From Candidatus Poribacteria bacterium (GTDB lineage: Bacteria; Poribacteria; WGA-4E; PCPOR2b): a DNA stretch of 64,000 bases. Every line of letters starts with the position of its first letter. Position 1 is the stretch's first letter. A program made the translations under genes and the position numbers. The DNA lies in contig OZ244042.1 in NCBI GenBank assembly GCA_965215015.1, positions 800,001-864,000 on the forward strand. The letters are read 5' to 3'. The notes beneath the pieces were generated by a model. The model worked only from the letters and a program-made list of their open reading frames with translations, searched no databases and had not been told where the DNA came from. Shown here in pieces: positions 47,583 through 52,794 of the stretch.

Positions 47583-48706
<1,124 letters not shown>

Positions 48707-48736: not shown

Positions 48737-51700
48737 TTACTCAGATGCTGTTACAGGTAGCCCGACGAAAAGCCGGCTATCAATATCCGTAAGCGGGTCA
48801 ATTTCCCGGCACGCTGCGGCGCGGGCGAACACGATCCCGGGCTGCTTGGCTCGCATCGCACGCGACAAAACGGTAAACCCTTTTGATTGGCTGCTATTGC
48901 GTAATTCCCACGCAACTCGTTCCAGCTCTAAGTTGAATCGAACAAGCCCTTCCCGTGAGCCAACGCATAGCGTGTAGAGTTCATCAGACGTTAAGCCCTC
49001 GCAATACCCGTTACGAATCACAACCTCTCCGCCTCGGATATCTGACACTGTCCCTCGCGCCCCGACAACACAACCAAGTCGATGAAGTCTGCTCGTAAAG
49101 GAGCGGCTTTTGACTGCGAGGATATGTGCTCCCAAGTTGTTATCAGCAAAGTTTTCGTAAGCGGCAATCCATTCTATAAGTTCTTCCGCGTAAGTGTCCC
49201 ACGCTGTTGCATCGTCAGGGTCCCTAGGAACGGGAGGACTACCATCGCCCCTACTGAGAAACGGACTCATGGATGCCCCCGATTCCTTTACAATTTCGAG
49301 TCCACGCTGCATCAACCGTTCAGCGACTTCAATGGTGCGATCAATTCCCTCGCGTTTGAGGAGTGTTCTTAGCGTATCCGCTAACGAGCGTCGCGTGACC
49401 AAACCATCAGGAATAGCAACCTCCATCCCGACAATTCCTGCGAGTTCATCACGCCCCTCAGGGGTGAGACTCAAACTTGCCAATCCCCATATCGCGTCAT
49501 GCCCTGGGGCTAATGCTGTGCATACATTTGGATCCCGTTTGAGATGTCCAGTGATGGAGAGCCGTTCACTAGCTTCTCGTTGGCCCGCCGCTGTGATGGG
49601 CAGAAAAACCGCCGCTTGGTCGCCATCAAAGTCAGCATTCATTAACTCACAGACGAAAGGGTGAACACGGATGACACGGCCTGGCTGGCGTACCGGATGA
49701 AATGCAACAAAGGAGGTAGGCATATACGCAGGGGCTCGATGCACAATCACCCATGAACGTCCCATCAGCTCATCAAGTGCCTGTGTTGCACCTTGGCTGC
49801 GGCCTCGCACGGCTTTGGCATCACCGAGTTCCTTTGTAAGTTCCGGCCCGAAGAGTGCCCATGCCATCTGTTCTGGAATGCCGACCTGATCGGCGCGTAG
49901 CTCCGCACCCGGGACAATGACGCAGCGCCCACTGAAGAGTGTCCGTGCCTTAAAGCGCATGTCTGCCGGGCTTAGCAGCACGTTGAAGTATTCCGCAAGG
50001 CGCGTTTGGAGTTGCTTGAGGGCTTGGAAGGTCAGGCTTTCCGGTGCATCATTTGCAAACATCCGCTCTGCTCTGGTATTGGCATCGGCAAGTACATGAT
50101 ACTCGGAAATGCCTTCACAGACACCAACTTCATCAATGGTTTGACTATGTAGCCACGGATGGGAGACTGGCCGGGCAAGCTGGAGCGTATTTCCAGTCGG
50201 ACGTACAAATTGGAAAGTCAGTCTGTCACCATCAAAGTTAGCGCAGATACCTGCCGCCGAAAGCTGCTCCCTGAGCTTAGTAAACATCGGCGTCGGTGGA
50301 CTTGCTTGCTCAACTTTCCCTGCTGTAACACGATCGAGAAGTGTCTCCGCATCTACTCGCGTCGCAGCACGGGTATTGAAATGTTCCCGCAAAGTTTCAA
50401 ATGCTGAAGTGTTGCGTAGCGTATAGTATTCGAGTTCACCAAGCCCTTGATGATATATAGGGGCCTCGTGGACGATTGGTTCAGATACCTTGAGCTTATC
50501 AAGCGCGATGTGAACTGTCTTCCCCCAATAAACCCAACCAACTGTACTCGGCCGATTCAGTTTTTTGCCGTTAGCTCCAAACGTGAGGGTTTCCATCCCA
50601 TCTTCAGGCAGCCCTAACTTTTGGAGTAGCTCACGGAGTTGATTGACACTAGGTGCTTGAAATGGCGGCACAATGGCCGTTTCTCCTTCCGTCCGTGCGA
50701 TGCGCCCCACGATTGCTTCACGGATTTGACCAAAGTTCATCCGCCCGTGCAAAGCACCGAAGCTGAAGACAAGCTCTACCGGCGTGCCATCGGCGAGGTG
50801 GGGCATCTCATCGTCAGGGGTGATGCGCGAAATGACCCCTTTCGTGCCGTGACGGTTACTGATCTTATCACCCGGCTCAATAATATAAGGGAAATTCAGA
50901 CGCGTAGCGCACGACTCACTAATCACGATGCCGTCCTCAAAGGTCTCCCCGCCCCAAGAGATAAAAGCGGTCAACAGATTACGTCCACACCAAAAGTAGG
51001 GGACATCAGGCTCGTAACCTGTCTGGACAAGTGCAGGCTCTGGGGAGACAGTCAATCTTGGCATCTCCTTGGAACAGCTAACTGGAGCAGCCTCTGGAGC
51101 AGTAGGCGACAACCACTGACGCATCATGTTCGCCCCCATGAGTACTCGCGATGGATCATTGTGTTCGAGAAAAGGGATTAGTGCTGCAGACAGACCTAGC
51201 GTTGCTTCCTGGCTATCATCCACGATGACCAATTTTTTATCACGAATCTCCGCCCCCCTCGCAACTGTCAGAATTTTGCCGACGTTTGGTCCTTCTGGCG
51301 TTTCAAATGGGCAGGTCCGTCCAAAGTGTCCAGAGGTAAAGACCTGATTCCCCTGTAAAATCCGCACCCTACGTAGATGTGTATGCTTGTCGAGCCAGTT
51401 GGTACTGGAGAGTCTCTGAGCGGTAAATGTGTCACGAAAGAACTCGCGCACCCATCTGTCAATCGGAAGCCACGAGCGAATAAGCGACGTATCCCATTCC
51501 AGATCTGGCGGTGCTTCTCTGATACGCGCTTTGAAGTAATCGTACAGTTGATCGCCCACACACTCAATCTTCGCTTGTTTCAGTTTCACGGTTGAGGCGG
51601 TCGGTACGACAACATAGGGTTCACCATCAAGCGTGAACATACCGTCTACATCAGGCTGCGGAATACCCGTGTATTCGACCTCAACATACCCCTCAGTTGA

Positions 51701-51856
51701 CGCCAGCACAAGTTTCACGCGACAGGTGTACGTACCAATTGGCTCAAAACGATAACCGGCTAGTGGCAGCCGGTCAGCAAGGAGTTCTGGCAATCGTTCT
51801 TTCATCAATCCTTCAAAAGACTGCTTGTGCCAAAATGCAGTAATGTTGTTCGACAT
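48737..51856 (-). CDS. Miniaturised single-chain RNA polymerase-like protein (RpoB-RpoC fusion)
   Basis: Beta motifs in order: 'GRTCPFETPEGPNVG', 'LIPFLEHND', 'MGANMMRQ', 'FEDGIVISE', 'GDKISNRHGTKG', 'GRMNFGQ', 'LGELE'. Then beta-prime motifs: 'FSGRCVI', 'HRAP', 'NADFDGD', 'EGL', 'GSREGL'. AGGAGG RBS. Confidence 0.93.
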   Translation of the reverse strand: MSNNITAFWHKQSFEGLMKERLPELLADRLPLAGYRFEPIGTYTCRVKLVLASTEGYVEVEYTGIPQPDVDGMFTLDGEPYVVVPTASTVKLKQAKIECVGDQLYDYFKARIREAPPDLEWDTSLIRSWLPIDRWVREFFRDTFTAQRLSSTNWLDKHTHLRRVRILQGNQVFTSGHFGRTCPFETPEGPNVGKILTVARGAEIRDKKLVIVDDSQEATLGLSAALIPFLEHNDPSRVLMGANMMRQWLSPTAPEAAPVSCSKEMPRLTVSPEPALVQTGYEPDVPYFWCGRNLLTAFISWGGETFEDGIVISESCATRLNFPYIIEPGDKISNRHGTKGVISRITPDDEMPHLADGTPVELVFSFGALHGRMNFGQIREAIVGRIARTEGETAIVPPFQAPSVNQLRELLQKLGLPEDGMETLTFGANGKKLNRPSTVGWVYWGKTVHIALDKLKVSEPIVHEAPIYHQGLGELEYYTLRNTSAFETLREHFNTRAATRVDAETLLDRVTAGKVEQASPPTPMFTKLREQLSAAGICANFDGDRLTFQFVRPTGNTLQLARPVSHPWLHSQTIDEVGVCEGISEYHVLADANTRAERMFANDAPESLTFQALKQLQTRLAEYFNVLLSPADMRFKARTLFSGRCVIVPGAELRADQVGIPEQMAWALFGPELTKELGDAKAVRGRSQGATQALDELMGRSWVIVHRAPAYMPTSFVAFHPVRQPGRVIRVHPFVCELMNADFDGDQAAVFLPITAAGQREASERLSITGHLKRDPNVCTALAPGHDAIWGLASLSLTPEGRDELAGIVGMEVAIPDGLVTRRSLADTLRTLLKREGIDRTIEVAERLMQRGLEIVKESGASMSPFLSRGDGSPPVPRDPDDATAWDTYAEELIEWIAAYENFADNNLGAHILAVKSRSFTSRLHRLGCVVGARGTVSDIRGGEVVIRNGYCEGLTSDELYTLCVGSREGLVRFNLELERVAWELRNSSQSKGFTVLSRAMRAKQPGIVFARAAACREIDPLTDIDSRLFVGLPVTASE

Positions 51857-51922
51857 GCTATCCTCCTATTTCTTTCGTATTGCGTGTGTGTAGATTGTAA
51901 AACGTCAAATATTGCTACTCGC

Positions 51923-52537: not shown

Positions 52538-52554
52538 AAAAGGCTTTCACTGTA

Positions 52555-52582
52555 AATGACACCGTAGGAGGGATAAAAGTTC
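52555..52582 (-). promoter_or_regulatory. Putative ECF-type promoter GAACTT-N16-GTCATT upstream of the sigma gene
   Basis: Minus strand: GAACTT ttatccctcctacggt GTCATT, ending 17 nt before ATG 52537; fits the AAC(-35)/GTC(-10) ECF pattern. Confidence 0.65.
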
Positions 52583-52794
52583 ATTGTCTGAATCAGGATT
52601 CTCAGGATTAGGTTAAATAAAACGCAAAGGCGCGAAGGCACAGAACCGCAAAGAAGATCAGACAAAACTTTGCGTCTCTGCGTTAGATTTTTCATCGAAT
52701 CCCGATTAGGTTTTCGGATTTTGGGTGGCGTGAATGGGTATAAATGTGATAAGATGCACATGTTACTCATCACACAATACATTAGGTTAGGAAC

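Follow-up and report, generated by a model that had tools for sequence, protein, structure and literature searches.

A single-chain miniature RNA polymerase homologue paired with an ECF sigma factor gene on a Candidatus Poribacteria chromosome

Can an RNA polymerase (RNAP) pared down to little more than its two catalytic barrels be directed by a sigma factor of its own? This question is raised by a two-gene locus of Candidatus Poribacteria bacterium (assembly GCA_965215015.1, contig OZ244042.1, positions 800,001 to 864,000), a stretch of 64,000 nucleotides (nt) that we call the window and whose numbering is used throughout. A sigma factor gene of the extracytoplasmic function (ECF) type is followed there by an open reading frame (ORF) of 1,039 amino acids (aa), which we call the mini-polymerase (Table 1). 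A first-pass annotation had singled out the stretch 49982-50914 (-), which is aa 315-625 of the 1,039-aa ORF at 48737-51856 (-), as keeping the clamp helices on which sigma region 2 docks and as having apparently lost the flap, zinc ribbon and rudder. We estimate the probability at roughly one half that the locus is a self-contained two-gene module in which an autonomous, catalytically active single-chain RNAP uses its own ECF sigma factor.

The mini-polymerase is a single chain in which an RNAP beta skeleton (aa 1-546) and a beta' skeleton (aa 547-1039) are joined end to start. Pfam models of both subunit types match it, Rpb2_3 (aa 149-204) and Rpb2_6 (best stretch aa 326-457, 8.3e-40) in the first half and Rpb1_2 (best stretch aa 700-764, 1.9e-18) in the second, and in sequence comparison with solved structures the N-terminal half matches beta (best expectation value (E) 2.3e-43) and the C-terminal half beta' (best 1.6e-22). 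The fold agrees with this assignment. The AlphaFold2 model of the whole protein (predicted local distance difference test (pLDDT) 93.4, predicted template modelling score (pTM) 0.91) was compared using VIA-align, in which residues 1..546 align with residues 22..1165 of the beta chain 8i23_C (Z 29.5, root-mean-square deviation (rmsd) 2.7 Å, 521 aligned), the N-terminus superposing on that of beta. Modelled separately, aa 540-1039 (pLDDT 94.1) align over 489 of 500 residues with residues 5..1265 of Mycobacterium tuberculosis beta' (6edt_D; Z 20.3, rmsd 4.2 Å), and isolated double-psi beta-barrel domains match aa 640-750 with Z of 8-9. The chain has the two barrel regions, homologous to beta/Rpb2 and beta'/Rpb1, of the two-barrel RNA polymerase superfamily.

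To locate retained and missing parts, a family profile from 79 full-length relatives (37-89% identity) was aligned to the rpoB and rpoC products of E. coli and of the same genome, which carries separate, ordinary rpoB (1,706 aa) and rpoC (1,414 aa) genes elsewhere. The segments matched in E. coli beta are 118-147, 474-580, 651-707, 790-821 and 1054-1342, the match reaching the last residue of the subunit, 1342. On the beta' side, profile positions 869-958 correspond to E. coli beta' 696-794, and the C-terminal segment is matched weakly to E. coli beta' 1320-1354 (E 0.11) and also to residues 1348-1364 of the genome's own beta'; A1013, L1022 and G1032 are each found in 79/79 relatives. As this segment corresponds to the beta' C-terminal region, the trigger loop, SI3 and jaw are skipped. 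That the conserved C-terminus might be half of a trigger loop was considered and rejected on the basis of the pairing with E. coli beta' 1320-1354 and the alignment to M. tuberculosis residue 1265.

Catalytic residues are conserved in both barrels across the same 79 relatives. The aspartates of the NADFDGD triad are present in 74 (D742), 77 (D744) and 76 (D746), and in the beta active-site motif GDK..RHG.KG the residues G329, D330, R335 and G337 are found in 79/79, with K331, H336 and K339 in 74, 76 and 75, respectively. E307 (69/79), D308 (73/79) and R237, R246 and Q247 (77/79 each) are likewise kept. The chain carries both the aspartate triad and the basic residues of the beta barrel that are expected in the two-barrel superfamily, and its catalytic capacity looks preserved.

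The reduction of the periphery goes well beyond the deletions described in the first-pass annotation, each of which was recovered. Only 13 residues separate FEDGIVISE (aa 306-314) from PGDK (aa 328-331), and at this point, where beta normally has the flap, the profile jumps from residue 821 to 1054 of E. coli beta and from 994 to 1246 of the genome's own beta. No Cys4 zinc ribbon precedes LARPVSHPW, C538 being the sole cysteine between about aa 530 and 579. The LARPVSHPW strand is covered by the structural alignment to beta', its H566, P567 and W568 are found in 76, 79 and 78 of the 79 relatives, and by sequence LAxPVxHxW has a weak counterpart at about 95-104 of E. coli beta' (E 0.15) and at 124-132 of the genome's own beta' (E 0.066). 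The 25 residues of E. coli beta' that come straight after the clamp helices (312-336), which we take to be the rudder region, are unmatched, and the same gap is seen against the genome's own beta'. Beyond these losses, the profile leaves unmatched residues 148-473, 581-650 and 708-789 of E. coli beta and about 1-75, 127-265 and 795-1319 of E. coli beta'. Presumably the lobes account for beta 148-473, the clamp core together with the lid region for beta' about 127-265, and trigger loop, SI3 and jaw for beta' about 795-1319.

The result is a protein one third the size of the two subunits encoded in the same genome (1,039 aa vs 1,706 + 1,414 aa), and the full-size RpoB/RpoC module set of lobes, flap, zinc ribbon, lid, rudder and trigger loop was not recovered by the profile against E. 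coli. Protein family models give a consistent picture. The mini-polymerase does not reach the NCBIfam equivalog cut-offs for rpoB (177.7 bits vs 801.15) or rpoC (93.3 vs 963.5) or the cut-off of the fused beta/beta' model (179.4 bits vs 4632); no NCBIfam model claims it, and its PHROGs matches are to full-size beta-like and beta'-like families only.

The clamp helices are retained while their neighbours, the lid region and the rudder, are gone. The gapless alignment on which the earlier identification relied was reproduced against E. coli beta' from residue 266 onward (domain E 8.5e-46) and against the genome's own beta' from residue 287 onward (domain E 5.4e-46), and aa 586-625 (YHVLADAN...AEYFN) do model as the clamp coiled coil, with AlphaFold2 helices H584-601 and H606-627 forming a hairpin. 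Residues conserved within this element are N593 (63/79), R595 (56/79), R598 (53/79), P605 (75/79), L608 (72/79) and L616 (69/79). In the gapless alignment R275, E295 and A302 of E. coli beta' correspond to A592, A612 and R619, and the substitutions R275Q, E295K and A302D in E. coli beta' are reported to impair holoenzyme formation (PMC8321222). Across the family the R275 position is Ala in 56/79 and the E295 position Ala in 52/79, the A302 position is Arg in 29 and Ala in 20 of 79, and N276, R278 and R281 of E. coli are kept as N593, R595 and R598. With the R275 and E295 positions changed and N276, R278 and R281 kept, the sigma docking site looks retained but re-specified, which fits the earlier idea of a co-evolved surface. 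On the other side of this putative interface, an alignment of 33 sigma sequences shows Q51 to be invariant and E52 to be conserved at 90% or more; we take the two residues to be the Q-E of region 2.2. Of the proposal that region 2 of the neighbouring ECF factor docks here through a changed surface, the change of surface is borne out, and the docking itself would be consistent with all tests made.

The upstream gene encodes an ECF (group IV) sigma factor of about 200 aa with regions 2 and 4 only. Pfam matches Sigma70_r2 at aa 24-91 (4.1e-17) and Sigma70_r4_2 at aa 136-188 (4.5e-11), and the sole NCBIfam cut-off passed is that of the sigma70-ECF superfamily (TIGR02937, 112.2 bits vs cut-off 42.9). 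The linkers between regions 2 and 4 of ECF factors are usually variable. Here the linker holds a P114-x-W116-x-x-D119 motif, in which D119 is invariant and P114 and W116 are at least 90% conserved (33 sequences), and the C-terminal tail (aa 192-204) is acidic and Trp-containing, of a W-E-E type, with W192 at least 90% conserved in the same set; motif and tail are both kept across phyla. No terminator-like site was found in the 66-nt spacer between the sigma and polymerase genes.

The mini-polymerase belongs to a widespread family. The best 120 relatives listed by a word-indexed search are 990-1106 aa long and 50-98% identical, nearly all of them unnamed or 'hypothetical'; an exhaustive search of representatives found 552 at E ≤ 1e-30, and the ESM Atlas holds two clusters of the mini-polymerase type (135 and 73 members) labelled 'hypothetical protein' and 'DNA-directed RNA polymerase family protein'. 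No sigma-polymerase fusion is apparent among the 120 listed relatives (990-1106 aa), a set in which the 'longer' length class was not searched. Full-length members from the representative search are at most about 1,100 aa, and two longer entries (1,948 and 2,309 aa) match partially. In GTDB species genomes we judged 21 loci (L001-L021) to be family members, and they come from at least six phyla (records titled Poribacteria, Planctomycetota, Chloroflexota, Latescibacterota, Myxococcales and Hydrogenedentota), the Planctomycetota loci lying in Planctomycetales, Phycisphaerae and Brocadiaceae. Identities to the query follow no taxonomic pattern (two Poribacteria loci, 46-47%; one Chloroflexota locus, 54%), which points to horizontal spread of the family. 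The gene is present in 30/151 genomes of the phylum, being found in 19/25, 9/10 and 0/100 genomes by family and in 14/19 of its own genus. This patchy presence makes the mini-polymerase an accessory gene, and it is not the sole, universally present copy that a housekeeping RpoB or RpoC would be.

Wherever the polymerase gene is found, the sigma gene tends to accompany it. A tblastn search located a sigma ortholog directly upstream on the same strand in 20/21 loci, and the contig of the 21st begins inside the polymerase gene. When all ORFs of at least 70 aa from these 20 loci and the window were clustered (L021 being left out), sigma and polymerase were the only genes common to all 21 sources; otherwise only overlapping shadow frames were widely shared, with other neighbour clusters in at most 7 sources and genes outside the cassette in at most 5. 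The sigma-polymerase junction is shorter than 20 nt or overlapping in 12/20 loci, as counted from longest-ORF starts, from which true starts may differ. Among 29 genomes of the taxonomic family, which are kin and whose counts are not independent, 22 carry both genes and 6 carry neither, so that presence is concordant in 28/29. Pairwise divergence of the two proteins is correlated over 20 cassettes (Mantel r 0.935, reached by 0/2000 permutations) and among 173 distant pairs of cassettes (r 0.635). This correlation is evidence of inheritance as a unit, not of binding.

Two genomes of the same genus depart from the intact arrangement. In one (G051) the polymerase has no match and the sigma copy, at C1:5436373-5436942, is interrupted by two in-frame stops (1 TGA, 1 TAG), which looks like decay of the whole cassette. 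In the other (G094:C2:821089-824204) the mini-polymerase is spread over two frames that overlap (aa 1-555 and 552-1039) and part almost exactly at the beta/beta' junction; a frameshift, misassembly or a naturally split form could account for this.

An ECF-type promoter-like motif, TGAAC-N14-CGGTGTC, lies upstream of the sigma gene. TGAAC followed after 14 nt by C/T-GGTGTC is found upstream of the sigma gene with identical spacing in 19/20 loci across phyla, L016 having a variant. The -10-like GGTGTC resembles the CGTGTC that opens a P-sigL scaffold oligonucleotide (PMC6372665, Methods). Conservation of the -35-like TGAAC at a fixed spacing implies that region 4 is still in use by whichever core reads the promoter. 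Downstream of GGTGTC (52538-52557 (-), L001-L020), six variable bases are followed by purine-purine-T-purine and a purine-rich run that are also conserved; the start site of a very short leader, and its ribosome-binding site, probably lie in this stretch. An 82-aa ORF upstream of sigma (P0003, 52534-52782 (-)) overlaps the conserved promoter, has no Pfam match and is most likely not a gene.

We also predicted a complex of the sigma factor with aa 262-1039 of the mini-polymerase. This prediction, which had been proposed as a check of the pairing, gave a weak pass, with an interface score (ipSAE) of 0.38 (runs 0.36, 0.39 and 0.38) compared to 0.00 for the best of 3 controls. The pass mark is reached by 116/157 solved complexes and 2/215 mismatched pairs, and a pass at ipSAE 0.60 or under was seen for 18/157 solved complexes and for both passing mismatches. 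Contact agreement among the runs is 25% or more, and the partner has a pLDDT of 63 or more. As sigma-core complexes have already been solved, the pass may reflect memory.

Under the reading that we favour, the 1,039-aa chain would be a two-barrel core that arose from beta and beta' as almost all peripheral modules were lost. Region 2 of the dedicated ECF factor would dock on the retained clamp helices via the family-specific surface to form a 1:1 holoenzyme, which would open ECF-type promoters; its sole recognisable target is the module's own TGAAC-N14-CGGTGTC, so that the module would activate itself. For region 4, left without a flap tip, the PxWxxD linker and the acidic Trp tail of the sigma factor may give a substitute contact. 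What the analysis establishes is the architecture, the conserved catalytic and clamp-helix residues, the linkage and co-occurrence of the two genes and the conserved promoter; catalysis, sigma binding, the choice of core that reads the promoter and any further transcripts are inferred. A more specific version of this reading, which we hold only tentatively, is that the 1,039-aa chain and the 204-aa ECF factor make a minimal sigma-dependent holoenzyme without alpha, omega, flap, zinc ribbon, lid, rudder or trigger loop, a self-activating circuit orthogonal to the host enzyme beside it, in which region 4 would be placed by a new contact.

Several observations weigh against a sigma-dependent mini-polymerase. 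The clamp helices of a normal RNAP also bind NusG-type factors, so their retention need not reflect a role in sigma docking. The predicted complex scores weakly and comes without a reported interface, and aa 1-261 lay outside the predicted complex, where a region 4 site could not show. The trigger loop, lid, rudder, zinc ribbon and RNA exit channel appear to be missing, and such a core would have to transcribe processively from promoters without any of them. Absent, too, is the flap tip by which region 4 is positioned, and the rigid spacing of the -35 and -10 elements would most simply be read as the work of a host core with a flap. A strict-pattern scan of the genome for the promoter gave 6 matches vs 4.2 expected, with no regulon visible beyond the operon; the operon's copy is the only strict match that is intergenic and upstream of a gene, the other 5 lying inside long ORFs. 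In two of the 22 genomes with both genes (G140 and G152) the sigma match has one in-frame stop and the polymerase frame is open, and 2 to 5 of the 79 relatives are without one of the three catalytic aspartates.

Several of these points feed the alternative that survives best, which we consider unlikely but worth keeping in view: the ECF factor works only with the host core and switches on the operon, and the mini-polymerase is its active, sigma-free output, as YonO of the Bacillus prophage SPbeta may be. The mini-polymerase could then act through an RNA product, priming or R-loop formation. A flap-bearing core is present in the genome and would directly explain a promoter of canonical two-element ECF layout and rigid spacing; the operon is the only target of the sigma factor visible in the strict scan of the genome, which found no further promoter copies; and the conserved catalytic residues are as expected of an active output, YonO being reported to transcribe as a single chain, with its need for factors left open in the available text of PMC5467207. 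What this alternative leaves unexplained is why the clamp helices, with conserved and exposed N593, R595 and R598, have survived amid the deletions around them, why the gene junctions are tight or overlapping, and why the sigma linker and tail are conserved; the weak pass of the complex prediction (0.38 vs 0.00) also speaks against it.

Less probable still is that the mini-polymerase assembles with host subunits or factors (alpha, omega or a NusG-like protein), or that it is a decaying paralogue without a specific role. Its accessory distribution (30/151 in the phylum, 14/19 in its own genus) and the one genome in which the gene occupies two frames divided at the beta/beta' junction would suit such an account. 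Decay is argued against by the conservation of full-length open frames (37-89% identity) among 79 relatives that come from several phyla, and dependence on host partners by the finding that sigma is the only linked gene. Weakest is the suggestion, made in the first-pass annotation, that the protein is a core mimic that acts as an anti-sigma factor, sequestering the ECF factor via its clamp helices in a negative feedback to which polymerase activity is irrelevant: it occupies the gene position typical of an anti-sigma, no other anti-sigma candidate is conserved in the cassette and the sigma docking element is kept, but we regard a decoy as very improbable, mainly because residues needed only for catalysis are conserved in both barrels across phyla (triad 74-77, GDK/RHG/KG 74-79, E307 69 and D308 73 of 79), and also because the entire 1,039-aa fold superposes on both subunits, far beyond the needs of a decoy, and no Pfam anti-sigma domain (class I, zinc-binding HxxxCxxC or another known fold) is detected at E up to 0.1, a search that a novel kind could escape.

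Several known systems invite comparison with the sigma-polymerase pair. The mini-polymerase resembles RpoB and RpoC in sequence and fold homology, in its beta-then-beta' order, and in its catalytic motifs, bridge helix, fork region and clamp helices, and differs from them as an extra, accessory copy at one third the size that is not the housekeeping enzyme. Natural beta-beta' fusions of full size are described in Wolinella succinogenes and Ca. Adlerbacteria (PMC11515920). With YonO it shares a single chain of roughly 100 kDa with both barrels and no trigger loop, most domains of multisubunit RNAPs being lost in YonO as well (PMC5467207). YonO, which we compared by its description, has homology only in a few catalytic residues according to the available text of that source, whereas the mini-polymerase gives the beta and beta' matches noted above (2.3e-43 and 1.6e-22) and has clamp helices; moreover YonO is phage-borne without a linked sigma, and the mini-polymerase is chromosomal with one. 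YonO does establish that a very reduced two-barrel enzyme can transcribe (PMC5467207).

In its working the mini-polymerase may be most like the phage cores that lack alpha and omega and use a sigma-like subunit. The non-virion RNAPs of phiKZ and AR9 have a beta/beta'-like core without alpha or omega and a promoter-specificity subunit, and this fifth subunit (gp68 or gp226) is described as occupying the place of sigma and touching two clamp helices (PMC7618050). These cores consist of four polypeptides with lid, flap and trigger loop, whereas the mini-polymerase is one chain without them, and their specificity subunit is described in the available text of the same source as having no detectable sequence similarity to sigma, whereas the partner here is by sequence an ordinary ECF factor. 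The order of an ECF gene and a co-transcribed partner behind an ECF-type, apparently autoregulated promoter also recalls ECF/anti-sigma pairs; the partner here is a polymerase homologue with catalytic residues instead of a class I anti-sigma domain or membrane protein. No description of the mini-polymerase family was found in the available text of the literature searched, including PMC7826278, PMC7671368, PMC11515920, PMC7481178 and PMC7824862, and the supplement of PMC7826278 has 0 occurrences of Rpb1, Rpb2, RNA_pol, PF00562 and PF00623.

If the pair is active, it is a natural experiment in which sigma-dependent initiation would need no more of RNAP than two barrels, fork, bridge helix and clamp helices, and would do without flap, exit channel, lid, rudder and trigger loop. 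Some bacteria would then run a second, private polymerase with a private sigma factor, contradicting the textbook statement of a single bacterial RNAP. With a core of about 115 kDa, a sigma factor of its own and a defined promoter, the pair would be attractive as a compact system for orthogonal expression and tractable for structural work on promoter opening. Even if the sigma factor merely activates the gene, a widespread chromosomal mini-polymerase would be new biology.

Table 1. Features of the sigma-polymerase locus, with positions in the 64,000-nt window
Feature	Position	Strand	Basis or remark
ECF-type promoter-like motif TGAAC-N14-CGGTGTC	52558..52583	(-)	ends 21 nt before sigma start codon
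ECF sigma factor gene (P0002), 204 aa	51923..52537	(-)	Pfam regions 2 and 4
66-nt spacer, sigma to polymerase	51857..51922	(-)	AGGAGG ribosome-binding site 6 nt before polymerase start codon
Fused miniature beta-beta' polymerase gene (P0001), 1,039 aa	48737..51856	(-)	Pfam, AlphaFold2, relatives
Beta-like half, aa 1-546	50219..51856	(-)	structural alignment and profile match
13-residue link at flap position, aa 315-327	50876..50914	(-)	profile jump in beta
Beta active-site motif GDKISNRHGTKG, aa 329-340	50837..50872	(-)	conservation
LARPVSHPW, aa 560-568, equivalent of the beta' strand located after the zinc ribbon	50153..50179	(-)	conservation, structural alignment
Clamp helices, aa 584-627	49976..50107	(-)	gapless profile alignment, AlphaFold2 hairpin
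Short link, aa 628-639, replacing 25 beta' residues after the clamp helices	49940..49975	(-)	profile
NADFDGD catalytic aspartate triad, aa 740-746	49619..49639	(-)	Pfam Rpb1_2, conservation
Bridge-helix-like long helix, aa 957-989	48890..48988	(-)	AlphaFold2 helix H957-989; profile
C-terminal segment, aa 995-1039, conserved beta' C-terminal region	48740..48874	(-)	weak profile match, structural alignment

A viral origin of the family was considered and rejected, as the viral loci retained hold only distant, partial relatives without sigma that are not of the same family: the 80 IMG/VR loci retained (L081-L160) showed 23-57% identity over partial matches, with a sigma match in 0/80. Many of the viral contigs, several of them 150-350 kb long, encode larger proteins whose match extends in a single frame from the beta barrel to the end of the beta' barrel; thirteen IMG/VR ORFs that were measured are 897-2,889 aa long and 23-39% identical. 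Fused clusters are also found in the ESM Atlas, at 1,164-1,787 aa.

A role in a known anti-phage defence system is not suggested by the matches either: no PADLOC model fits the polymerase (0 families; the sigma factor has one marginal helix-turn-helix-type match, E 0.0002) and its neighbours in the window are ordinary metabolic genes. These encode an aldehyde dehydrogenase, a major facilitator superfamily (MFS) transporter, an AAA_26 protein, an oxidoreductase and glutamate synthase domains. The convergent AAA_26 gene (253 aa, domain E 5.3e-50; 47945-48706 (+)) ends 31 nt from the polymerase stop codon, and this gene is shared only by the closest relatives.

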